DNA of 36,459 nucleotides, from positions 1 to 36,459 of the IMG/VR virus record IMGVR_UViG_3300020379_000405; one strand, written 5' to 3'. The translations under genes were made by a program, and so were the position numbers. Below are positions 18,438-28,468 of the stretch, piece by piece. Each line of letters begins with the position of its first letter. The stretch's first letter is position 1. A model generated the notes under the pieces. It was not told the DNA's origin. It saw nothing but the letters and a program-made list of their open reading frames with translations, and made no database searches. This stretch comes from a virus. Lineage: Duplodnaviria > Caudoviricetes.

Positions 18438-18461
18438 ACAACCGCACTCGCCGCTAACAAC

Positions 18462-18593
18462 GGTTCGATCGCCCGTCAGAGGGGCTTCTGACTCTATGTC
18501 CAGACACGACGGCCCAACCACACGGGGGGCATAGAGCGACCAGCACAGCAAGGCTCGGTCAAGGCAAGAGAGGCCTCAACACTCGGAGGAACC
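18462..18593 (+). ncRNA. Candidate structured small RNA (multibranch)
   Basis: GGTTC/GAACC closure with arms GTCAGAG/TTCTGAC, CTCTATGTCC/GGGCATAGAG and GACC-AGC/GCT-GGTC. G-U pairs lie on the plus strand. Confidence 0.45.
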
Positions 18594-18600
18594 AAGGACA

Positions 18601-18817
18601 TAACCACCCAACCCCACAACAAACGAACCAAACTCCCCAAAACACCGATAATCACTATGTATACATACCCCCATCTCGGCACATACCCCCATTCCCACAC
18701 GGTTTACTACAGAATCTACGGCTAACACCTGTACCCCACAAAAAACACCCCCCGTACCCTTAAAACCACACAAAACAGTCGCCCATTCACTATCACACAG
18801 ACTTACTCTGTACCCCC
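18601..18817. other. G-depleted C/A-rich tract with iterated TACCC; candidate terminus/packaging region
   Basis: About 16 G in 217 nt by hand count. TACCC at 18684, 18732, 18755 and 18811. Composition switches abruptly to TGTTGTTGTTTGGG at 18818. Confidence 0.5.
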
Positions 18818-18828
18818 TGTTGTTGTTT

Positions 18829-19610
18829 GGGCGTCACCCACGGTAGGGCTGTGGGTCGGGCTACTCGTGAATCAAGCCCCGACGAAGAGAAAGGGATGTC
18901 GTGTCTTGACCGCAAGGGCGAGTATCCCTGACGCTTTCGCCGTCTCGGCGACCACGGAGTGATCCGTGGACGATCACGTTCGTATCATTCGTGGGTTGTG
19001 CTGATTGTGTGATCAGCGCCTACCCAGAGATTTGATTGGCTCATATAAAGGAGCGTCTGTCGTAAAACGAGAAAGGGAAAGGGCCTCGTTTTACAAACCC
19101 ACAATAACCCGACGAGGAGCCAAGACAAATCTCCTCAACTTCCTTCGCAAGTGGGCAACTTGTCGTCGGGCCTTTTACAAACTAGCACCTATTCGCACAA
19201 CTCCAGCTATGCCGATCCGAGAACATATAATCGGAATCGACATAGCCGAAGCAATGCTCACCCCTTCGTAGTCCTCAACTTATTAAGCGATCAAACGAAG
19301 GGGCACTCCCCCAGTCAAGTGACAGACCCTTCTTGCAACACGAATCTCCGCACGTCGGGCCAAACAATGCCAACCAGCATCCACTATCAGACCACCCCCT
19401 CGTGGGTGCGGAGACTGCCGACCCGTCCTATATCTCTTTTATTGTGTCGTTGCCTTACGGTTCGTGTTGCTTTTATGTTACAAAACAAAGGGCAAGGGCG
19501 TTTTGTAACATAAAACCAGAGAGGGCGAAACCAAGAGCGTGTTTCGGACACTTGACAGGGGGAGTTCCGGCGCTTCTTCGTAAAAGACCCGAAGGCAAGT
19601 CGGTCATCGG
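18829..19610. ncRNA. Candidate large multi-domain structured RNA or ssDNA element upstream of the first early gene
   Basis: More than 15 stems, including a 16-bp perfect stem and a long-range 19305-19321/19549-19565 pairing. No ORF with a credible product. Confidence 0.5.
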
Positions 19611-19633
19611 GCATAAACCAAAGGATGAGACTA

Positions 19634-20758
19634 ATGGAATCCAACATTGAGCGTATCAAAGCAAAGCGAGCAATGTCAGCAGCACGGCGAGAGCAAGAAG
19701 CCGCACATCTTAAAGAATGGACTGAAGCCTTTAACGGGATCGAGCTTGGAGGTGATGTGACCGCTAGTTTTCAGCCCTCAGATCCAGAGGCGACAGACAA
19801 CGCAGCGGCTACAGACGCTAGAGCTAACACGTTTCTCGCTAAATACGTTGACATCTTTGCAGACGTTGACACCAAGCGGCCAGTTATCGAACCCGCACAC
19901 CCCGCTTTAATCCGGCAGTACATGGCGGTCGAAGTCAACCTAGGTATCTCGAAGTTTGAGGATAGTACGGACCGGTGGCTACCCGGCGCTCGTTCACTAC
20001 TTAACTCAGCACCCACTCAGGAAACCTTGGTGCAACTGGCGCATCGGTACAACTCGCATATCTTCGGCGTCTCCCAGTATCTCGATAGGGATGTCAAGGC
20101 GGAACTGAAGCGTACCGGACGTTGGAAAGATGCGCTCTATCCCGAAGCTGACAATAGCCGAGTGGTACTGCCCTTCTGGAATGGCATCGATTCGTACTAC
20201 GGCACCACGGGTGGATTGACAATCGCACCTTATGAGAAGTCTAACCAGACTAACGGGTGGCGTTATATGAATTGTTCTTACCCCAACGGCGACAACAGCG
20301 TAACATCCACAATCTTCCTCTTCGGTCCAGCACCTAAGGGGTACGAGGCGCTTGGGGCAACTCCTCAGCAGCGTCGCTGGCAACCCACGCTTTACGCAGT
20401 AAGGCAGGTCACCTCCGAAACTCAGACATTCAATGAGTACTTTGTCGGCGGTATGGAAGCGTTACTCGCTCTAATGGCTGACGATAAAAGCGGGTCGGCT
20501 ACTTGGGAGGCAGACAGAGATGCTCGCAAACTGCAACAGGAGAAAGCAGCTTGGCAGGCAGCAGGTGTTGATGTCAGCAGTCTGCAAGAAACCCCAGAGA
20601 TCGCAGCACAAAAAGCGTTAGCAAAGGTCAACGCATCTCTCACACTGGCTGACTTAACGGCAGAGGAAGCTGAAGCCTTAGTAAGCATCGACGCAGAATT
20701 CGCAGAAAGGGAGGCTGAAATCGATAGGCGGATAGCCCTAAATCAACTAGATAGCTAG
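19634..20758 (+). CDS. Orphan first early protein (~374 aa)
   Basis: Long ORF with its own terminator. AAGGA SD favours ATG 19634 (track start 19625). Helical, charged N- and C-termini flank an aromatic-rich core; no motif recognised. Confidence 0.8.
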   Translation: MESNIERIKAKRAMSAARREQEAAHLKEWTEAFNGIELGGDVTASFQPSDPEATDNAAATDARANTFLAKYVDIFADVDTKRPVIEPAHPALIRQYMAVEVNLGISKFEDSTDRWLPGARSLLNSAPTQETLVQLAHRYNSHIFGVSQYLDRDVKAELKRTGRWKDALYPEADNSRVVLPFWNGIDSYYGTTGGLTIAPYEKSNQTNGWRYMNCSYPNGDNSVTSTIFLFGPAPKGYEALGATPQQRRWQPTLYAVRQVTSETQTFNEYFVGGMEALLALMADDKSGSATWEADRDARKLQQEKAAWQAAGVDVSSLQETPEIAAQKALAKVNASLTLADLTAEEAEALVSIDAEFAEREAEIDRRIALNQLDS

Positions 20759-20763
20759 CACAG

Positions 20764-20806
20764 AGGGGAGCGGTCGGTCCATTAGGGCTGGTCGCTCCCC
20801 TTTTTT
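20764..20806 (+). terminator. Intrinsic terminator
   Basis: AGGGGAGCGGTCGGTCC-atta-GGGCTGGTCGCTCCCCT followed by a T run, 5 nt after the stop. Confidence 0.85.
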
Positions 20807-20835
20807 GGCGCAAGCTTCCAAAGGTTCTACCCACC

Positions 20836-20981
20836 TCCAGCGTAACGCCGCTGGACCACTTGCAACGTAACGCCGTTGCATCACTAAAACATTCCCGCTC
20901 CGCTCGGGATCGAGAACGATCTCGATACATCGTCGGGGTTTCGCCCCCGAACGACGAGCAGCGTAGCGCCGCTGCACCACT
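20836..20981. repeat. Three copies of the hairpin motif CARCG-TARCGC-CGYTG-NA-YCACT
   Basis: Copies at 20836-20860, 20861-20885 and 20958-20981, with compensatory stem changes. Confidence 0.85.
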
Positions 20982-21052
20982 TACAAAATCCCAAACCCGG
21001 GGATTTTGGGAGGGTCACTATCAGATTCTGTAATACGACCTTAGGAGGTCAA

Positions 21053-21520
21053 ATGAAAAAGATAAAGATAACATTAGCAATAGTTACAGCCTTGTTTGCT
21101 GGCTATCTGATTAGTTTTTCGTTTCCAAACGAGGAACCTGCAAATGTAGAAACACGTCGTGTAATTGACGGTGACACGTTCGTAGCTGATATCGATGGGA
21201 TCATCGAGACTGTTCGGCTTATTGGTATCGATGCGCCTGAATTGGGTACATGTTATTCGGTTCAGTCGTCAGAGTTACTCGCTAGGTTGATGTTCCGTGA
21301 TGACATCTGGCTTGCGTATGGTCCAGAGAAGCGTGATCCGTATGGGCGTCTGCTTGCGTATGCGTTCCATGAGGATGGTACGTTTGTGAATTTAGAAATG
21401 GCTAAACGTGGTGCCGCAGAGGTAATGACGATTAGTCCGAATAGCGAGTATGCCAGTTTGATTGGTGAGGCTCGTGATGAAGCAGCTATCGCAAAACGTG
21501 GTGGCTGGAGCAACTGTTAG
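21053..21520 (+). CDS. Thermonuclease (SNase family) with N-terminal signal/membrane anchor
   Basis: Motifs RVIDGDT, VRLIGIDAPE, DPYGRLLAY and VNLEM; AGGAGG SD. Confidence 0.92.
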   Translation: MKKIKITLAIVTALFAGYLISFSFPNEEPANVETRRVIDGDTFVADIDGIIETVRLIGIDAPELGTCYSVQSSELLARLMFRDDIWLAYGPEKRDPYGRLLAYAFHEDGTFVNLEMAKRGAAEVMTISPNSEYASLIGEARDEAAIAKRGGWSNC

Positions 21521-21529
21521 AAAGGGGAC

Positions 21530-21682
21530 ATGATGTCCAAAAGCGTACTTAACAATTCTACGTGGAAAACACTTCCACTCAACCGTATTGGCTCAACGGC
21601 ACAAGTTGACCGGTGGGACAAAATGGTTCAGACCTTAGCTGTCGAACGTCGGCAACAATGGAAAACAAAAAGAAGTATCTAG
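21530..21682 (+). CDS. Hypothetical protein, 50 aa (MMSKSVLNNSTWKTLPL...)
   Basis: Translated by hand; GAAAGGGG RBS; fills the gap between the nuclease and SSB genes. Confidence 0.6.
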   Translation: MMSKSVLNNSTWKTLPLNRIGSTAQVDRWDKMVQTLAVERRQQWKTKRSI

Positions 21683-21694
21683 GAGGTACTTACA

Positions 21695-22012
21695 ATGGAA
21701 AATGCAACAATCACAATTTGTGGCAACTATGGAAAAGATCCTGAACTGCGTTACGGCGCTGCTTCTGGTAAACCTTTCCTTAATATGCCTGTAGCTGTTA
21801 CTTCAGGTACAAAAGAAAAGCCTAAGACTAGCTGGTTTGATGTGAAGTTCTTTGAGGAGCAAGCATGTCAAATGGCGGAGTTACCGAAAGGTACTCGTGT
21901 AATTATTACAGGCAATCTTCGTCAAGATACATATGAAGATGCTGATGGCAAAACGCAATACCGGACCGTTGTGTACGCACAGGAAGCTGGTTTGAGCTTG
22001 CGTTGGAGCTAA
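21695..22012 (+). CDS. ssb: Single-stranded DNA-binding protein, no acidic tail
   Basis: ITICGNYGKDPELRY...TSWFDVKFF...KGTRVIITGNLRQDTYE; ends LSLRWS. Confidence 0.88.
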   Translation: MENATITICGNYGKDPELRYGAASGKPFLNMPVAVTSGTKEKPKTSWFDVKFFEEQACQMAELPKGTRVIITGNLRQDTYEDADGKTQYRTVVYAQEAGLSLRWS

Positions 22013-22018
22013 AGGTTT

Positions 22019-22099
22019 AGAGTCGGCAGACTGTCCTACGTGTGATACGTGTTGCCTACCAACAGGTAGGTGGACTGACCGTAGGGATCTGCCGACTCT
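22019..22099 (+). promoter_or_regulatory. Long intergenic stem-loop (RNase III-type processing or attenuator candidate)
   Basis: AGAGTCGGCAGA/TCTGCCGACTCT 12-bp perfect stem with inner CCTACG/CGTAGG and CCTACC/GGTAGG; no U-tail. Confidence 0.55.
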
Positions 22100-22175
22100 T
22101 CGCCCCCACTTAGTTGGGTTTTACACCATTCAGTAATAAAACCATTCCGTAATAAAACCAAAGGAGATAATTGTT

Positions 22176-22430
22176 ATGAAGAAACTTACTAGTGCAGAAG
22201 CTATTCTGCGTCATCTCGAAACTGTGCGTGCTAACCGCCTGTCTTCGATTATGTCTACCGATACGTTGTTGGATGAGTTGATTAAACATATTGAGCATGA
22301 TCTGGAAGAGATGCTTGATGATATGTACCGTGAGTCGCAGGAGCGTGCTCGTCAGATTGAGATACAGCTTGATGATGCGTACGGTGATACCGACAAGTTC
22401 GGTGATGTGATTGCTGGAGGTAGTTTCTGA
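22176..22430 (+). CDS. Hypothetical protein (84 aa)
   Basis: AAGGAG RBS; coupled to the next gene. Confidence 0.7.
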   Translation: MKKLTSAEAILRHLETVRANRLSSIMSTDTLLDELIKHIEHDLEEMLDDMYRESQERARQIEIQLDDAYGDTDKFGDVIAGGSF

Positions 22431-22630
22431 TGGCGGCTAAGTGTAAGGGGAAGCCGTCTGCTAATCAGTATGGTAATGGTTGCCGGTGTGATGATTGTCG
22501 TGCTGCTTGGCGTGTGCATCAGGAGGAGCAGCGTGTGACTGCTCGTAAGAAGTCTGTTAGTCGTGATCGTCCTGTTGTTTATGCTGATGCTTTTACTCGT
22601 GAGGAAATCTTGCGTGCGAGAGGGATGTAA
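22430..22630 (+). CDS. Small Zn-binding-type protein (Y..GCRC..CR motif)
   Basis: QYGNGCRCDDCRAAW, a motif frequent in actinophage small proteins; GGAGG RBS. Confidence 0.7.
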   Translation: MAAKCKGKPSANQYGNGCRCDDCRAAWRVHQEEQRVTARKKSVSRDRPVVYADAFTREEILRARGM

Positions 22631-22962
22631 TGAATCTTTGGTTGGTTATTTGGTCGATACTTGATTTCGCTGCGATCAACCACGAGCCACCTAATCCTGA
22701 AGTTGCACCGATTGTGTGTGAATACTTTGCGGATGATTGTGTGGATGCGTTGGGGATAGCGTGGTGTGAGTCGTTACATAATCCACGGGCGTATAACGGT
22801 GCGGATCATGGCTTGTTTCAGATTAATAAGTACTTTTGGTATGAAGTTTTTAAAGATAAGTGGGCTGACAGGTTTGATGTTGAACAGTCCACTCGCTTTG
22901 CGTTCTACATTGTGGAACATACCGAGTTGAAGTGGCTGCTTTGGACTTGTGGTCGCTACTAG
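22630..22962 (+). CDS. Lysozyme-like/lytic transglycosylase domain protein
   Basis: IAWCES (catalytic Glu), NPRAYN, GLFQIN, C-terminal W..W.C; hydrophobic N-terminus. Confidence 0.8.
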   Translation: MNLWLVIWSILDFAAINHEPPNPEVAPIVCEYFADDCVDALGIAWCESLHNPRAYNGADHGLFQINKYFWYEVFKDKWADRFDVEQSTRFAFYIVEHTELKWLLWTCGRY

Positions 22963-22991
22963 AACGTGACTCTTCGGATGCTTAATCCCGC

Positions 22992-23037
22992 ATAAACACT
23001 GGCTCAAAGGAGTTATTGTGTTTATTGTTGGTACAAT
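22992..23037 (+). promoter_or_regulatory. Hairpin (22992-23025) followed by extended -10 TGGTACAAT (23029-23037)
   Basis: ATAAACAC/GTGTTTAT and TGGCTC/GAGTTA stems, then TGnTACAAT. Confidence 0.6.
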
Positions 23038-23058
23038 ATACTGAAGGGTCGCAAGAAA

Positions 23059-23124
23059 GGGAGAGGGGATGTGCTCGTACGGGTAACCAGAGCAACGATT
23101 AGGACGTAGAGCATCCTCTCTCCT
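23059..23124 (+). ncRNA. Leader RNA motif, copy 1
   Basis: 28-nt core identical to 24416-24443, enclosed by a ~13-bp stem; upstream of the RBS of ORF 23150. Confidence 0.65.
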
Positions 23125-23149
23125 GAAGATCTCAAATGAAAGGGAAACC

Positions 23150-23401
23150 ATGAGAAAAATAACAGTTAATACAACTGTTCAAAATGAAGTATGTGAAGAA
23201 CGACGCTCATTAGAGTTTGACAATGTTCGTTCTGCATCTGTGTTTATGAATACAGACGAAGTTGTTTGGACATCTAATGATCGTTTTACTTCATGGAGTA
23301 TGGGTCTTGGAACATTGGTTATCCATGACATCACCGAAGAACAAATGCTTGCACTTGTAAAAAGCATTACAACTGAGTTAGATAAACCAAAAGGAGAATA
23401 A
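23150..23401 (+). CDS. Hypothetical protein (83 aa)
   Basis: GAAAGGG RBS; TAATG-coupled to DUF932. Confidence 0.7.
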   Translation: MRKITVNTTVQNEVCEERRSLEFDNVRSASVFMNTDEVVWTSNDRFTSWSMGLGTLVIHDITEEQMLALVKSITTELDKPKGE

Positions 23402-24405
23402 TGTCACATCGAATGACAGGGCTTGATGCTCAACATGCTTTGTACGCAAAGACACCTTGGCATCGGCTAGGCAACGTCGGACCTATCGACTGGGAGAAAG
23501 CTCGTGATGCTTTTGACTGGTGCGAAGTGGTGCGACATCCAATACATATTGAGCATGATGAGATAGGAGTTATTCTTGAAGGCAGAAATGTCTTAAAGAT
23601 GGTCAACTATCCACATGCTTATGCCGAAGTAAGTGACCGGTATCAAATAGTTCAGCATCGTTTTATGGCTGATGACTTAACTGGAATGCTCATTGATACT
23701 GGACTTGTAGAAACTATTGAATCAGTTGGTACCTATGACAATGGTGCTGTTGGTTATGTGTCTCTAAAGTTCAAGGATGACATAGTTATTCCGGGTTGGT
23801 CGAAGGTCGAGTCGATATTTAATATCGGTAATGGACATGACCGTAAGGTTCCGTTGATCGCTACTCAATCAGCTACTGCTGTTGTGTGTTCTAATACGTT
23901 TAAGTGGAACATCTTGGATAAGGAAGCTGTCTTCAAGTTTAAGAAGATGGGTGATCCGCAAGGGATGATGCACGAAGCTGTTGAACAGTTGTGTGCAGGC
24001 TATGAACGTCACACAGAATACGCTGCACAAATTGAGCGGATGGCTAATCAAGAGTTTGTTGATGAGGAATGGGATCAGTTAGTTGAGACTCTTATTGGTA
24101 CTGGACCAGAAGAACCGTGGTGGAATAGCAATACCCAATCACATCAGGGTTATCACAATCAGCTAACTCGTTGGCGACATCTGAAAACAGATTTGAACCA
24201 CAGATTTCGTCGTGACGAAGATATAGCTGGTGTGCGTAACACTAGATGGGGTGCACTCATGGCTGTTCAAGCATGGGAGCAGAAAGATAAAGCAGTTAAA
24301 GGTGTTAAGAGCAGCCTTGAACGTACTCGTAGGCATCAAGCCAACGTGATGTTTGGGAAGCTACCGATGACTGAGAAGGCTGCCAAGATTCTGGTAGCTA
24401 ACTAA
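23401..24405 (+). CDS. DUF932 family protein (phage/plasmid LGT_TIGR03299-like)
   Basis: TPWHRLG, VSDRYQIVQH, ESVG, NGHD, VVCSNT and TRWGALMAV are the family motifs, in order. Confidence 0.85.
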   Translation: MSHRMTGLDAQHALYAKTPWHRLGNVGPIDWEKARDAFDWCEVVRHPIHIEHDEIGVILEGRNVLKMVNYPHAYAEVSDRYQIVQHRFMADDLTGMLIDTGLVETIESVGTYDNGAVGYVSLKFKDDIVIPGWSKVESIFNIGNGHDRKVPLIATQSATAVVCSNTFKWNILDKEAVFKFKKMGDPQGMMHEAVEQLCAGYERHTEYAAQIERMANQEFVDEEWDQLVETLIGTGPEEPWWNSNTQSHQGYHNQLTRWRHLKTDLNHRFRRDEDIAGVRNTRWGALMAVQAWEQKDKAVKGVKSSLERTRRHQANVMFGKLPMTEKAAKILVAN

Positions 24406-24409
24406 ATCT

Positions 24410-24474
24410 GAGGGAGGATGTGCTCGTACGGGTAACCAGAGCAGGGCTTTGTATCCCTTCATGCATCCTCCCTC
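24410..24474 (+). ncRNA. Leader RNA motif, copy 2
   Basis: Same 28-nt core; closing stem GAGGGAGGATG/CATCCTCCCTC; upstream of the AAGGAG RBS of ORF 24505. Confidence 0.65.
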
Positions 24475-24504
24475 TTCAGTTCTTACAAATAAAGGAGAAA
24501 AGAA

Positions 24505-24774
24505 ATGAGTATAGAAGCAACAGTAAACATAGATACACGGGAGCTAGCTGACGATGGAACTTTCTGTGACATCGTTGGTGACATCGCTGCTGATGTAATC
24601 CGTGACAGCGGCGAGGTAGAACACATCGTCACTAGCACAATAGAAAACGATATTGGTTACCACATCTCAACGTATCTGGAAGACAACCCAGTGCTTGACC
24701 CTGATGATGATGCTTTCATTAACGCTGTAGCTAAAGCCATGTTAAATATGGCTCGTAGCTATGTCGGAGAGTAG
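24505..24774 (+). CDS. Acidic hypothetical protein (89 aa)
   Basis: AAAGGAG RBS; Asp/Glu-rich. Confidence 0.7.
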   Translation: MSIEATVNIDTRELADDGTFCDIVGDIAADVIRDSGEVEHIVTSTIENDIGYHISTYLEDNPVLDPDDDAFINAVAKAMLNMARSYVGE

Positions 24775-25135
24775 CGGTAAGCAGCAGCGTGATATTGGGA
24801 TGGCACGAGTAGTTACGGCTGCTCGTCCATCCCAGAAAGCTGCTGCCAAACATGCGATAGCTAAGGTGTGTCGTACGACAGCGCCACATAACTCGTGGAC
24901 TACTGATGAAGTTCATGCTGTGTTAGAAGAAATGAATGTCAAGTTAGATAATGCACGGTTGCTTGGTCCGTTGATGAAGCAAGCACAGAAGGCTGGTTTG
25001 ATTGAGCCTGTTGTGTGTGATGGATGTCAACGTCAAGAGACTCGGTTGTCTCGACGTAAGAAACGTCATGCTGGTCCGCAGTATCTGTGGCGTACCACAC
25101 CTGATTATTACTACGAGTATTGGAAAGAGGATTAA
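24761..25135 (+). CDS. Putative winged-helix DNA-binding protein (124 aa)
   Basis: WTTDEV...RLLGPLMKQAQKAGLI...SRR..RH....LWR pattern of a common phage family, with an inserted CxxC. Confidence 0.55.
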   Translation: MSESSGKQQRDIGMARVVTAARPSQKAAAKHAIAKVCRTTAPHNSWTTDEVHAVLEEMNVKLDNARLLGPLMKQAQKAGLIEPVVCDGCQRQETRLSRRKKRHAGPQYLWRTTPDYYYEYWKED

Positions 25136-25272
25136 TGAAAAAGGTAAATGGTATTTGGGAAATCTGGGTAGGCAACGAGTGTTGTTGGATTACTGATGAT
25201 GGTCAAGCTCATTATGATTTGAAGTCTGCCGAGAAACGTAAGCAAGAATTGGAGAGAAGAAATGTATCTTAG
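25135..25272 (+). CDS. Hypothetical protein, 45 aa (MKKVNGIWEIWVGNECC...)
   Basis: Translated by hand; TAATG overlap and GAGG RBS. Confidence 0.6.
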   Translation: MKKVNGIWEIWVGNECCWITDDGQAHYDLKSAEKRKQELERRNVS

Positions 25273-25399
25273 TGATGACCCACCCGACGATCCTTATGCA
25301 GATTTGAGTGAAGAAGAATATGAAGAAATGCTCGAAGCTAGAGAGGCTGCTGAATCAGCTTATTGGGATCGCCGCGTTGATGAAGCCCGAGGAAATTGA
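25262..25399 (+). CDS. Acidic hypothetical protein, 45 aa (MYLSDDPPDDPYADLSEEEYEEML...)
   Basis: Translated by hand; GGAG upstream; fills the gap. Confidence 0.6.
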   Translation: MYLSDDPPDDPYADLSEEEYEEMLEAREAAESAYWDRRVDEARGN

Positions 25400-25425
25400 T
25401 AAACTCGGGTTAGAAATGGAGAGCA

Positions 25426-26220
25426 ATGCAATACGAAAAGGGTCCAGCACAAAGCGTGCTGGAAGATTATATACGTCGTCCTGATAATAAACCAACAGCG
25501 GACGGATCGTTCTTAAGGGTATCTAGTATCACGACGTGTGATCGGAAACAGATATTCGATGGGATGGGTGTACCTCGTATAGAGGCTGGCGAAAATGCGA
25601 TCAATGGTTTTGTTGCTAGAGAAGTTGGCAACACTATGCATGAGCATATCCAAGCAGCGTTTAAAGAAATGGTGCCGGGTTTTAAGTGCGAGGTGCCTGT
25701 AAGTATGCCTGAGTCGATGACTTCTGGTCATGCTGATGGTGTTTATAACGACACTGTTTTAGAAATAAAAACAATGCGTAATTATGGGTTTAGGAAAGCC
25801 CGTAATGAAGGACCTAAAGAAGAGCATTTGTTTCAAGCATGTGCTTATGCGTTAGGTCTAGGTCTTAGCGACATACATCTTATCTATATGTGTACTGATG
25901 CTACGCCTAGCCGTTGGAAAGATAGTGCTCGTGCTGGCGACATGGTTGAGTGGCATTACAACATCCATGATTCTATTGATGAAAGTGGCACTTCTATTTT
26001 GGTAGCTACTACTTACTTCTTAGAACAACACGCTCAAATGGCTAAAAACTATTTGACTACTGGTCTGATACCTGAAGGGTTGAGGTCGTGGTGGAATACA
26101 GAAGTCCCGTGGGAATGTAATTACTGTCCTCACTACGACATCTGTGAACAGTATGGAGACATAGATATTTTAGATGTTATCGATTTAGTAATAAAGGAGA
26201 CTGATGAGTCAGTTAAATAA
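25426..26220 (+). CDS. Cas4/AddB-like PD-(D/E)XK exonuclease with Fe-S cysteines
   Basis: N-terminal SS...C.RK, GNTMHE, GHADG, LEIKT, QACAY, C-terminal CNYCPHYDIC. Confidence 0.88.
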   Translation: MQYEKGPAQSVLEDYIRRPDNKPTADGSFLRVSSITTCDRKQIFDGMGVPRIEAGENAINGFVAREVGNTMHEHIQAAFKEMVPGFKCEVPVSMPESMTSGHADGVYNDTVLEIKTMRNYGFRKARNEGPKEEHLFQACAYALGLGLSDIHLIYMCTDATPSRWKDSARAGDMVEWHYNIHDSIDESGTSILVATTYFLEQHAQMAKNYLTTGLIPEGLRSWWNTEVPWECNYCPHYDICEQYGDIDILDVIDLVIKETDESVK

Positions 26221-26626
26221 ATTAGCAACACCGTTCTCGGACAGGTTCATTGAAACCAAACCCGGAAAATTTGCGGCATCGTATGTGCCGCACGGTATCG
26301 TGTCCCAATTCCTTCTAGGGATCTTAGGACCATATGATTTTGCTATTGATACTCTTGTTAGGGATGCTGATGGTACTCTTACTGGTTGCCTCTGCACTCT
26401 TACTGTTGAGATTGATGGACGAACTACCTCGATACAAGAGGTTGGTGAGTGCGAAAATCCGAACAACTGGAAGACAGACGGAGCAAGACTAAAAGCTTGT
26501 GCTTCGGATGGCATTAAAAGATGTGCAATGAGGTTGGGCTTAGGTCTACATCTCTGGCATAAACAAGATGGGAACTATGTTCTCGCAGACATTCTCGAAA
26601 AGAGAGAAGGAGAAAGCAATGAGTAA
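26204..26626 (+). CDS. Sak/Rad52-like single-strand annealing protein
   Basis: SYVPHGIV...LKACASDGIKRCAMRLGLGLHLW; lies between the exonuclease and SSB genes. Confidence 0.82.
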   Translation: MSQLNKLATPFSDRFIETKPGKFAASYVPHGIVSQFLLGILGPYDFAIDTLVRDADGTLTGCLCTLTVEIDGRTTSIQEVGECENPNNWKTDGARLKACASDGIKRCAMRLGLGLHLWHKQDGNYVLADILEKREGESNE

Positions 26627-27011
26627 TATATCCATAGCAGGTAACGTTGGTGCAGACTTGACGTTACGTTACGCACAATCAGGCAATGCGTTTGTCACTG
26701 TCCCTGTAGCTGTTACTACTGGCAGAGACGACAAGAAAGAAACACATTGGTTTGATGTGAAATGTTTCGGTGATCTTGCGGAGCGTATGGCTGAGGTTCC
26801 TAAAGGCAGTCGTGTCATGTTTATTGGCAGGATGAAACAAGATAACTGGGAAAGCAAAGAAGGTGAGAAGCGCAGCAAACTTTGTCTTTACGCAGACGAA
26901 GGTGGCCCTTCATATCGTTGGCATCCTAAAGGTGGTGCGAGTGATACAGTCACTAAAGCAGCAGTAGAAACTGTTCAAGCAGCATTCGATCCCGGTGAGG
27001 AACCTTTCTAA
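26619..27011 (+). CDS. ssb: Single-stranded DNA-binding protein with acidic tail
   Basis: Start at ATG 26619 (AAGGAG RBS). ISIAGNVGADLTLRY...THWFDVKCFG...; ends DPGEEPF. Confidence 0.9.
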   Translation: MSNISIAGNVGADLTLRYAQSGNAFVTVPVAVTTGRDDKKETHWFDVKCFGDLAERMAEVPKGSRVMFIGRMKQDNWESKEGEKRSKLCLYADEGGPSYRWHPKGGASDTVTKAAVETVQAAFDPGEEPF

Positions 27012-27286
27012 TGGAAGAAGAAAAAAGCGTTATCGTCCCAGTATTAAGCGACAACCTTACCATCATGTCTTTTCTAGTACCTAAAGACTTTGCTATGGAT
27101 GTCGAGTTACATGCGTCACGTTTAGTTGATGCGTTTGAACGTCATCCTGCTGGCAGTGACGGTATGGACCCTAACAATAAAATGATGCAGGCTCTCTCGT
27201 TTATGTTCCAGTCAGCTTTAGAAGCTTACATGGAAATGACAGAAGACGACTGGGAAAATCATCCCCCTGAGATTACTGAATTGTGA
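27011..27286 (+). CDS. Hypothetical protein (91 aa)
   Basis: TAATG-coupled; acidic. Confidence 0.7.
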   Translation: MEEEKSVIVPVLSDNLTIMSFLVPKDFAMDVELHASRLVDAFERHPAGSDGMDPNNKMMQALSFMFQSALEAYMEMTEDDWENHPPEITEL

Positions 27287-27672
27287 GTAAAGCTAAACAG
27301 AAGGGGACCGCTTGGGAAACTGAGTGTGTTAGATATCTTGAAAGCTATACAAAGCATGAGTTTATGAGACTCCCGCTTGTAGGCACAAAAGATGTCGGAG
27401 ATATTCGATGCCTCGACCTTCCTGAATTTGTATTTGAATGTAAAAACAGGAAGGATGCTCTGTCTTCTTTGTCCCAGATAATGAAGGAGACAGAGCAAGA
27501 GCGCATCAATGCAGACGCCAAGTTCGGTGCTGCATTAGTTAAACGTCGGAACTTTGGGACCGGCGGAGCCTACGTAGTCATGGAGATGCACACTTTTGCA
27601 CAGTTAATAAAGGAGAGAATAGATGGGCAAAGTAATAAAAATGACAACCAAACGAGCACCAGTTTTTACTGA
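27283..27672 (+). CDS. Holliday-junction resolvase (Hjc-like PD-(D/E)XK)
   Basis: SKAKQKGTAWE...YL, DVGDI, VFECKN, LVKRR; GTGA overlap. Confidence 0.82.
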   Translation: MSKAKQKGTAWETECVRYLESYTKHEFMRLPLVGTKDVGDIRCLDLPEFVFECKNRKDALSSLSQIMKETEQERINADAKFGAALVKRRNFGTGGAYVVMEMHTFAQLIKERIDGQSNKNDNQTSTSFY

Positions 27673-28018
27673 TATGACTGACATGCTCAACCAATGGTGG
27701 AAAGAACAAACTAAAAAACCGTTGGCTAAACCAATGAAGATCCGTCATGTCGTTGAAACTGCTCATGCGGCAGGGTGGTCACTCGATGAATGTTACGCAG
27801 CTTTAGGTATTACTTGGTCGTTTACTGAAGCAGCTTTTGAAACAGCTTTACGTCGAATAGTAGATGAGCAAGTGGAAAACCAACGCCCAGTCAGTAACAT
27901 AGCTGACGTTGCAGTGACTAAGGCTGCGCTAGAATCAGAAAAGAAAGAGTCTCTGTCTAAAGAAGAAAACATTCAGAGACTAAGAAAGTTAAAGGAACAA
28001 CTTAGATCTAAGGGCTAG
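27623..28018 (+). CDS. Hypothetical protein (131 aa)
   Basis: AAGGAG RBS; helical with a charged C-terminus. Confidence 0.7.
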   Translation: MGKVIKMTTKRAPVFTDMTDMLNQWWKEQTKKPLAKPMKIRHVVETAHAAGWSLDECYAALGITWSFTEAAFETALRRIVDEQVENQRPVSNIADVAVTKAALESEKKESLSKEENIQRLRKLKEQLRSKG

Positions 28019-28099
28019 CCGGATGATTACCGGTGATGGGATGTGGGGGTGTTTACTCTCCTTTCTACCTCACCATCCCGCCCTAATTCTCACACAGCG

Positions 28100-28108
28100 T
28101 GGTAAAAT
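28100..28108 (+). promoter_or_regulatory. Extended -10 TGGTAAAAT
   Basis: TGnTAAAAT 28 nt upstream of ATG 28137, preceded by a GGGATG.../...CATCCC stem (28038-28079). Same TGGTA.AAT form as at 23029. Confidence 0.55.
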
Positions 28109-28136
28109 AAAGGGACATCGTGATTGGAGAAAAGCG

Positions 28137-28307
28137 ATGAACGTTAAAGTCGAAAAAGTAGTTGCAAGAATCGGGGCAGGTCTTAGTGTTCCCGGTTATG
28201 CAGTGATCTGTGACAGTTATATGCGTGAGTGGTATCGAAGCAAAGAAGAAGCTCAACGTATGGCTGAAATTTTTAAAGACGAAGCGTCTAACCCTGAAGA
28301 TTATTGA
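28137..28307 (+). CDS. Hypothetical protein (56 aa)
   Basis: Start reassigned to ATG 28137 behind GGAG; the track start at 28023 runs through the hairpin and promoter. Confidence 0.6.
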   Translation: MNVKVEKVVARIGAGLSVPGYAVICDSYMREWYRSKEEAQRMAEIFKDEASNPEDY

Positions 28308-28468
28308 TGAAAGTCAACAACGGACATATTCGTTGGGAAAAAAAAGACTTCAAAAAGCATGGGACTATCGCTAAATATTTGATCGGTGAATGCCGATGCA
28401 AGAAATGTAAGGCACGTATCCTTGCGAAAGACGATAAGAACCTGTCGCCTTCTAAATTCTTTTATTAA
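28307..28468 (+). CDS. Small Zn-binding-type protein, 53 aa (HGT...Y..G.CRC..C)
   Basis: Translated by hand: MKVNNGHIRWEKKDFKKHGTIAKYLIGECRCKKCKARIL...FFY. TGATG-coupled; its stop overlaps the stop of the convergent gene. Confidence 0.7.
   Translation: MKVNNGHIRWEKKDFKKHGTIAKYLIGECRCKKCKARILAKDDKNLSPSKFFY

Follow-up and report, generated by a model that had tools for sequence, protein, structure and literature searches.

A duplicated phage RNA motif as one payload of an exchangeable-insert hairpin system

In the early messenger RNA of phage T7, the stalks recognised by RNase III lie between cistrons, before a ribosome-binding site, and have a free top, a layout resembling that of the intergenic hairpins analysed here. 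Work on the minimal T7 R1.1 substrate (PMC1540722) gives such stalks a helix of at least 11 pairs, as in most of the stems described below. Repeated intergenic units in a variable early region are likewise known from the PeSL cassettes of T4-type phages (PMC2839356). Hammerhead ribozymes between phage genes (PMC3088659) and the Pistol ribozyme (RF02679) also occupy intergenic early-region positions like that of the element studied here. Furthermore, non-coding RNAs gained by recombination or duplication and proposed to occupy host proteins are described as pseudo-ToxI of phage PhiTE (PMC3475682) and as the RNA anti-CRISPRs, or Racrs (PMC10651486). The present work concerns a 36,459-nt stretch of phage DNA, referred to as the window (Duplodnaviria; Caudoviricetes; IMG/VR record IMGVR_UViG_3300020379_000405), in which a 28-nt core occurs exactly, with 0 mismatches, at 23067-23094 and 24416-24443, as the initial annotation had reported. 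The core belongs to a structured motif that is named module A in the following.

Module A is a real, selected and uncatalogued RNA motif and one payload of a hairpin system with exchangeable inserts. Hairpins stand at three neighbouring sites of the window: site 0, site 1, which holds the first copy of module A ahead of a DUF932 gene, and site 2, which holds the second copy behind it. The constant part is a purine/pyrimidine closing stem, whose interior falls into 14 groups of inserts, module A being one of them. When 36 loci were picked by their DUF932 protein alone, the same stem was present at site 1 around unrelated interiors, and site 1 with its flanks was recovered in all 35 of these loci for which the DNA extended far enough upstream, the pattern finding 34 and inspection by eye the remaining one, L031. 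A stem-pattern search yielded 33 viral and 102 metagenome loci, 22 of the latter with short flanks. Chance pattern matches (L005, L008, L146, L180 and L196) were dropped before counting, as were L047 and L048, which are copies of the window, L048 representing the window in the stem-pair and junction counts. The resulting 84 distinct site-1 contexts contain 57 distinct hairpins, which were sorted into the 14 groups by hand-picked motifs; because groups G, H, M and N are possibly related at a distance, the count is best read as at least ten unrelated insert types, to which L031 adds a larger one.

The closing stem is long and keeps its pairing. At least 11 uninterrupted pairs are found in 52 of the 57 site-1 stems, and the stems around the two copies in the window have 14 and 13. 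Within the first ten pairs of the 57 stems there are 69 G-U and 0 A-C pairs, and at site 0 the corresponding counts are 225 and 3. This excess of G-U over A-C fixes the plus strand as the folded strand, and RNA seems the likelier molecule, rather than single-stranded DNA. An A-rich linker that joins site 0 to site 1 is part of the search pattern, but it was first noticed in the protein-selected loci.

The unit exchanged is the RNA insert inside the constant stem, which is replaced en bloc between phages with flanks that are 97-100% identical. For instance, L001 and L004 carry different inserts between flanks that agree at 100% (151 nt upstream) and 97.8% (600 nt downstream), and L189, with module A, shows 98.0% downstream identity to L001; taken together, these loci hold three different inserts at 96.8-98.0% identity over the next 600 nt. 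The inserts of L167 and L045 likewise differ on near-identical flanks, one sequencing run has a short insert in place of the module at 23071-23120, and identical inserts are found in distant phages. Additionally, tandem hairpins with different inserts occur in L126, L193, L195 and L124. The type of insert is independent of the next gene, the same genes following many different inserts, and the genes behind module A itself belong to at least two families at site 1, with others again at site 2. On a DUF932 tree of 55 rows, four of them tandem pairs from two loci, the insert label changes 30 times, compared to a minimum of 12 and to 39.6 in shuffles, and the five rows with module A fall in five separate places; DUF932 itself may recombine.

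A different exchange had been suggested by the initial annotation, namely loss or replacement, via the repeats, of the cassette formed by DUF932 and the 83-aa open reading frame before it. The relatives lend this little support. DUF932 lies behind site 1 in 68 of the 84 contexts, the other 16 of which end within 306 nt, so that all 68 informative contexts retain it; the 83-aa gene, like some others, is variably present behind site 1. In 28 contexts DUF932 stands directly behind the stem, and the 83-aa gene is frequently missing or substituted. In run X15, a loose contig end puts sequence of the upstream gene some 255 nt ahead of the 89-aa gene that follows site 2, and this could represent a deletion of the cassette. 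With regard to site 2, a hairpin was found at 20 of the 51 distinct post-DUF932 junctions and none at the remaining 31, module A accounting for 10 of the 20; these junctions were counted by eye, the script having flagged 17, one of them wrongly, and missed four.

The evidence for the fold of module A comes from 16 distinct instances, 7 at site 1 and 9 at site 2, which were gathered by pattern and protein searches in related marine phage contigs. Their RNAalifold consensus arrives unaided at the same three-way junction that we name here, with a closing arm (P1), a loop-bearing inner arm (P2) and a third arm (P3). In this structure 97.8% of 319 cells are paired and 7 of the 20 pairs change on both sides (two in P1, two in P2 and three in P3), compared to only 41-53% paired cells in every slid control; related sequences can beat the shuffle control, so that its outcome does not amount to a probability. 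The third arm has 16 different sequences, all of them still pairing, and its pairs total 67 bp against a shuffled mean of 44.6, a value reached in 0 of 2000 shuffles, with 1 of the 16 arms individually significant. The P3 loop ranges from 3 to about 15 nt, and the strand from P3 to P1 measures 4 nt in 13 of the 16. Conversely, the 13-nt loop of P2 is unchanged in 16 of 16, and because it is invariant beside a freely changing arm, selection on the loop is indicated rather than recent copying. In L179, two P2 pairs have changed on both sides and the loop has not. These comparisons support module A as a selected structure of the plus strand, with paired changes in all three arms. The stems are therefore kept, and not merely the primary core, which disfavours a plain DNA operator. 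The motif had been proposed as a new cis-regulatory RNA, of which a selected and structured RNA outside Rfam is supported, and a gene-specific cis regulator or riboswitch is not.

Several details of the two copies agree with what had been read from the window at the outset, and others are refined. The closing stems differ by one A-U to G-C and one G-U to A-U change, as claimed, and both copies stand just upstream of a ribosome-binding site, the Shine-Dalgarno beginning about 14 and 16 nt after the stems. The inner arm TGCTC/GAGCA is also upheld, but as four pairs (GCUC/GAGC) instead of five, the U preceding P2 pairing into the closing stem (U-G in 11, C-G in 2, U-A in 1, unpaired in 1 and a gap in 1 of the 16). 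The two GG/CC pairs beneath GUAA never vary, and because of this the GNRA hairpin is neither supported nor refuted by covariation and is unproven. Both 76-nt regions fold better than all of 200 shuffles (z-scores -3.85 and -3.78); their single-sequence minimum-energy folds are not the three-way junction, which costs 0.9 and 0.3 kcal/mol more. No third copy of the core was found in the window at up to 3 mismatches, and 0 of 100 shuffles matched. Contigs of the runs X4 and X5, which are not marked as source and belong to one other study, span both hairpins without a differing letter inside them.

Two other readings of the motif were considered and set aside. A mini open reading frame behind the purine run (Met-Cys-Ser-Tyr-Gly-stop) was rejected, the ATG being lost in 2 of the 16 instances with a compensating stem change, the frame shifted in 1 of 16 and a residue changed in 3 of 16, with no synonymous changes. 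A tRNA-like cloverleaf was not encountered either: ARAGORN found 0 tRNA genes, a T arm and a 7-nt anticodon loop were not seen, and only the P2 stem resembles what we take to be the consensus of a D stem.

The search for relatives did not lead far beyond this clade. No Rfam family matched at the gathering threshold in the window (Rfam 15), and between 22900 and 24600, down to an E-value of 10, the best hit (13.7 bits, E 5.9) lay off the motif. No known small self-cleaving ribozyme core matched module A in a scan that detects Pistol in relatives. An exact core search of viral contigs gave 3 loci, and relaxed core patterns gave 7 and 17, in which 5 contigs are clade members and the remainder lack the closing stem; L222 and L224 have a paired P2 around a loop that is one letter off, but L222 scores 20.5 bits over only part of the model. 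In GTDB genomes the one match is a phage contig in a Gammaproteobacteria bin, and the 50,697 GenBank phage records had no match. The module A model R1 found nothing beyond the 16 known sequences over 164 source slots and no instance in 4 whole virus records with other inserts, and a profile built from the Cas4-like alignment did not lead to any clade further away. Mimicry of ribosomal RNA was tried as an explanation and rejected for E. coli, to which these tests were confined and in which permuted mimics would escape detection: R1 on rrnB gave a best E-value of 0.42, and the longest exact matches of 28 inserts to either strand of 16S, 23S, 5S and one tRNA did not exceed chance. A single antisense match of 12 nt turned up in the 56 tests against E. 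coli RNAs, about as expected for that number, and no target of the module A loop was found in the window or in the E. coli rRNAs. Literature searches, made mostly without subscription journals, found no description of this motif or layout.

Table 1. Features of the hairpin sites and their surroundings (window coordinates unless a locus is named; P1, P2 and P3 are the arms of module A)
Feature	Position	Strand	Remarks
Site-1 hairpin: closing stem with 14 uninterrupted pairs and module A copy 1	23059..23124	+	stem comparison across loci
Module A copy 1: P1 top, P2 23073-23076/23090-23093, P3 23095-23097/23105-23107, 3-nt junction	23067..23116	+	
Invariant 13-nt loop, copy 1, proposed recognition element	23077..23089	+	identical in 16/16 distinct instances
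Site-2 hairpin, holding the second copy of module A, 4 nt past the DUF932 stop	24410..24474	+	optional in the clade
Invariant 13-nt loop, copy 2	24426..24438	+	same 13 letters
A-rich 6-nt linker from site 0 to site 1, putative left homology arm for exchange	23053..23058	+	conserved
Conserved leader after the stem with Shine-Dalgarno, putative right homology arm	23125..23149	+	same 9 letters in 71/84 contexts
Site-0 hairpin: 12-bp covarying closing stem, swappable interior	22966..23052	+	starts 3 nt past the stop of the upstream gene
Extended -10-like letters within the site-0 hairpin	23029..23037	+	in 59/75 site-0 versions, absent from 16
83-aa open reading frame, optional in relatives	23150..23401	+	no family match, no usable Atlas match
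DUF932 gene	23401..24405	+	PF06067 E 1e-21; TIGR03299 103.5 bits, below cut-off 110.7
89-aa open reading frame after site 2	24505..24774	+	no family match
Long hairpin before the 84-aa gene, at the place of Pistol in relatives	22019..22099	+	z-score -6.48
Pistol	L175:3887-3969, L158:2795-2878, L188:1025-1108, L131:1454-1521	-, -, +, -	directly before a homologue of the 84-aa gene

The window has a 230-nt end repeat, which points to a whole or near-whole phage genome. Family scans identified a major head protein, a terminase and an amidase endolysin among its products, together with two single-stranded DNA-binding proteins (SSBs), a Rad52/Erf-like annealing protein, a Cas4-like nuclease and a RusA-like resolvase. 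The sequencing runs that contain this stretch are marine, seawater or estuary metagenomes, where a label exists. The duplicated motif lies in a block of small plus-strand genes (19625-28468), which we take from its gene content to be the early region. This block opens with a 377-aa open reading frame (19625-20758, plus strand) that matches nothing in Pfam, PHROG, PADLOC or NCBIfam and is followed at 20762-20985 (plus strand) by a terminator-like 19-bp hairpin with a U tract, and then by a pair of short twin hairpins, separated by 25 nt, and a structure with branches (z-scores -5.09 and -4.17). Ahead of the block, between the divergent arms, about 1.2 kb at 18460-19625 contain no convincing gene and a hairpin near 19466-19520, and are likely the early promoter or origin region.

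With regard to the host, weak signs suggest Actinobacteria. The closest relatives of the terminase are those of Streptomyces phages, at 24% only, and PRK07772, a label presumably actinobacterial, is the best subfamily model for both SSBs, ranking after the general model. A homologue search named no taxa. The contig L221, from this phage clade, sits inside a GTDB bin labelled Gammaproteobacteria, through either a binning error or as a hint to the host; in the metagenome-assembled genome G002 no large-subunit rRNA was found, and the 1 match of R1 to it is the phage contig itself.

The hairpin at site 0 is constructed in a similar manner. It folds with a z-score of -5.17 and has two-sided changes at 10 of 28 pairs among 16 sequences, and its closing stem is exactly 12 bp in 72 of the 75 distinct versions, with at least 11 pairs in 74 of the 75. 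The initial annotation placed an extended -10 before the first copy; the letters are there, but the promoter reading is uncertain, and they lie inside a covarying hairpin. Where present, the hexamer varies solely at its third letter (59 of 59), as expected of a promoter, and in 4 of 59 the TG ahead of it has disappeared, with a compensating change. No promoter was called at site 0, and no -10-like letters were seen at site 2. The element may be both promoter and RNA structure; the hairpin would form only in a transcript that starts upstream. The letters sit in a loosely paired bubble, which recalls a promoter-mimic RNA or a single-strand promoter, and relatives show at least two other interiors.

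True ribozymes occur in the same early region of relatives. Pistol scores above the Rfam cut-off in four relatives (58.7-63.6 bits versus 34.5), L158 and L188 being identical there, and it was not found inside the purine/pyrimidine stem in 51 scanned locus slots. In the window, its place is taken by the long hairpin at 22019-22099, whose conserved internal part is shared by L148, L155 and L027, with two-sided changes at 5 of 31 pairs in 4 sequences and no Rfam match; it is a candidate ribozyme or further module, as its sequence stands. Additionally, one to three other long hairpins per genome follow the first SSB gene in L012, L159, L160, L162 and L145, and one family of tops recurs in L012, L159 and L162, making this junction a fourth cassette site. 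L031 has before DUF932 an insert of about 95 nt between the usual flanks. Moreover, CCUCC is frequent in loops, namely in the site-2 hairpins of L019, L037, L119, L124, L135, L155, L163 and L173, in site-1 group F and in Pistol; such a loop could base-pair to the Shine-Dalgarno that follows, or mimic 16S rRNA at its 3' end.

Our tentative proposal, which we would place slightly below an even chance, is that the stem mounts interchangeable RNA payloads and likely lets RNase III release them, and that module A likely binds a host protein as a decoy. The inserts would be transcribed within the early message, where the 11-12-bp stem would force each of them to fold independently and would probably serve also as an RNase III or decay-blocking element. 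Recombination at short homologies in the constant flanks would move the inserts, for which the genome has genes for two SSBs, a Cas4-like nuclease and an annealing protein like Rad52/Erf, and host diversity would keep numerous types of insert in circulation. Protein-binding RNAs typically expose an unvarying loop on a scaffold that varies, and the 13-nt loop would be the part of module A that binds the host protein as a decoy. In the T7 study, E. coli RNase III needs a helix of 11 pairs at minimum and no particular loop (PMC1540722), and because there is no loop requirement the insert would have a job of its own beyond that of the stem. A decoy seems preferable to a single task in cis because the many unrelated inserts, their stacking and their duplication fit diversifying selection on payloads. 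A bolder version appears rather unlikely: that the clade carries an RNA arsenal, with the mount at several junctions and at least ten decoys, module A included, released by processing and directed at different host defence or regulatory proteins, and exchanged in a hot spot like those of anti-CRISPR genes, where the hairpin at 22019-22099 may be a new ribozyme class.

Some observations weigh against the decoy proposal and its foundations. The loci are metagenome assemblies, and some exchanges may be chimeric joins, which would explain single cases but hardly the overall pattern. The stem-length count is partly circular, a portion of the stem being prescribed by the search pattern, and in L031 the closing pairs number only 6. 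In 10 of the 84 site-1 contexts (groups H and N) there is a small loop only, so that an elaborate insert is dispensable. The covariation in P2 depends on the single sequence L179, and that of the other groups is thin, two-sided change beyond the first 12 columns being found in 2 of the 9 groups with at least 3 site-1 members. Furthermore, Pistol in the same early region points to processing as a theme, and no partner or mimicked host RNA emerged from Rfam, from R1 on rrnB or from the E. coli rRNA matches. Of the RNA run X18, two 151-nt pieces fall within DUF932 and none covers the hairpins; the run is uninformative on expression.

The strongest alternative, which we consider unlikely but well within reach, is that the hairpins only punctuate the early message in cis, as an RNase III site, a barrier to 5' decay or a weak terminator, with inserts that tune this job, in some cases through binding of a processing factor, and with no action in trans. 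The sites do fall between genes, 3-5 nt past a stop codon or 11-22 nt ahead of a Shine-Dalgarno; the leader behind them is mostly the same, the stems have 11-12 bp, small loops suffice in some contexts, and Pistol stands at a neighbouring junction in 4 loci. Precedents exist in PeSL stem-loops with G and C tracts, which terminate transcription (PMC2839356), and in the hammerheads between phage genes, which have been interpreted as processing signals (PMC3088659). Notwithstanding, punctuation leaves the invariant 13-nt loop, the at least ten unrelated inserts and the tandem stacks unexplained, RNase III being indifferent to the loop; neither copy has a U tract or was called as a terminator, and site 2 is dispensable.

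Module A could itself be a new small self-cleaving ribozyme, interchangeable with Pistol-type elements. Its three-way junction, conserved core and free third arm would suit this, as would the true Pistol in the same clade and region. We regard it as quite improbable: no Rfam ribozyme matches, Pistol was not found in the purine/pyrimidine stem, and the conserved letters sit in an apical loop facing away from a junction whose strands vary. Similarly, an element acting as DNA, either a repressor operator or single-stranded hairpins used as a priming signal or single-strand promoter, earns little credence. The invariant core, the two SSBs with an annealing protein, and a hexamer varying only at its third letter are consistent with it, and a single-strand promoter would suit -10 letters inside the site-0 stem. 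However, paired changes in P1, P2 and P3 are unexpected for a double-stranded operator, and the G-U without A-C on the plus strand, the location between stop and ribosome-binding site and the nearby ribozyme argue for RNA, even if G-T wobble in single-stranded DNA is compatible with the G-U pattern.

A riboswitch or protein-sensing leader for the gene behind it, which the initial annotation had also considered, is very improbable: the motif is structured and 14-16 nt ahead of the Shine-Dalgarno in both copies, but the inserts show no consistent association with the next gene, there is no terminator, and the Shine-Dalgarno is not sequestered, being mostly unpaired (mean predicted pairing 0.19 and 0.24) next to a closing stem that is 98-99% paired and offers no evident switch. 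Lastly, near-neutral passengers spread recently by recombination would account for identical inserts in distant phages and for tolerated small loops, but this is highly unlikely because such a spread would have copied the third arm too, which differs everywhere beside a constant loop, and in view of the double compensation in L179.

Compared with the systems described so far, the hairpins share with PeSL cassettes the order of stop codon, -10-like letters, G/C-tract stem-loop at or after the -10, Shine-Dalgarno and start, as well as short homologies that drive shuffling; the variable early region here does contain recurring stem-loops with G/C tracts that lie after a stop codon and ahead of a Shine-Dalgarno. 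PeSL stem-loops are described as terminators and their shuffled units as genes (PMC2839356), whereas here a conserved RNA insert is exchanged and there is no -35 consensus or U tract. Unlike the tops of RNase III stalks, those found here belong to conserved families, which are swapped as whole blocks and can be stacked; cleavage of these stems is predicted only, and their G-C richness can hinder E. coli RNase III at some positions. Module A differs from hammerhead and Pistol in having no ribozyme family match and no conserved junction core. With regard to catalogued structures, the tables of a 2023 survey of viral structured RNAs (PMC10690425) place DNAVirus_8685, 6736, 3712, 1886, 1654, 5655 and 5782 at most 25 bp upstream of DUF932 genes, and the first four of these are wholly marine and 47-83 nt long. 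Some hairpins of this clade may be among these candidates; in none of the 7 site-1 contexts of module A is DUF932 the gene immediately behind it. The freshwater-2 RNA (RF02980) reached 29.7 bits, under its cut-off of 49.9, at the post-DUF932 junction and leader of one hairpin-less relative, a match driven by the ribosome-binding leader, and did not match module A.

The closest functional parallels would be pseudo-ToxI and the Racrs, which copy a recognisable host RNA, whereas no host model was found for module A. If the inserts merely tune processing, the RNA motif is still new, and the locus still shows clearly how modules can be exchanged inside a hairpin. The system makes testable the role of intergenic RNA structures in phage early messages, which host proteins marine phages target with RNA, and whether RNA payloads face diversifying pressure like anti-defence proteins. 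Phage decoy RNAs have so far been found singly, through their likeness to host RNA. A common mount with many payloads does not feature in the available accounts of pseudo-ToxI (PMC3475682) or of the Racrs (PMC10651486), and many selected folds on one mount amount to a natural library of aptamer or ribozyme candidates with built-in controls, since the flanks and the gene behind them stay the same.

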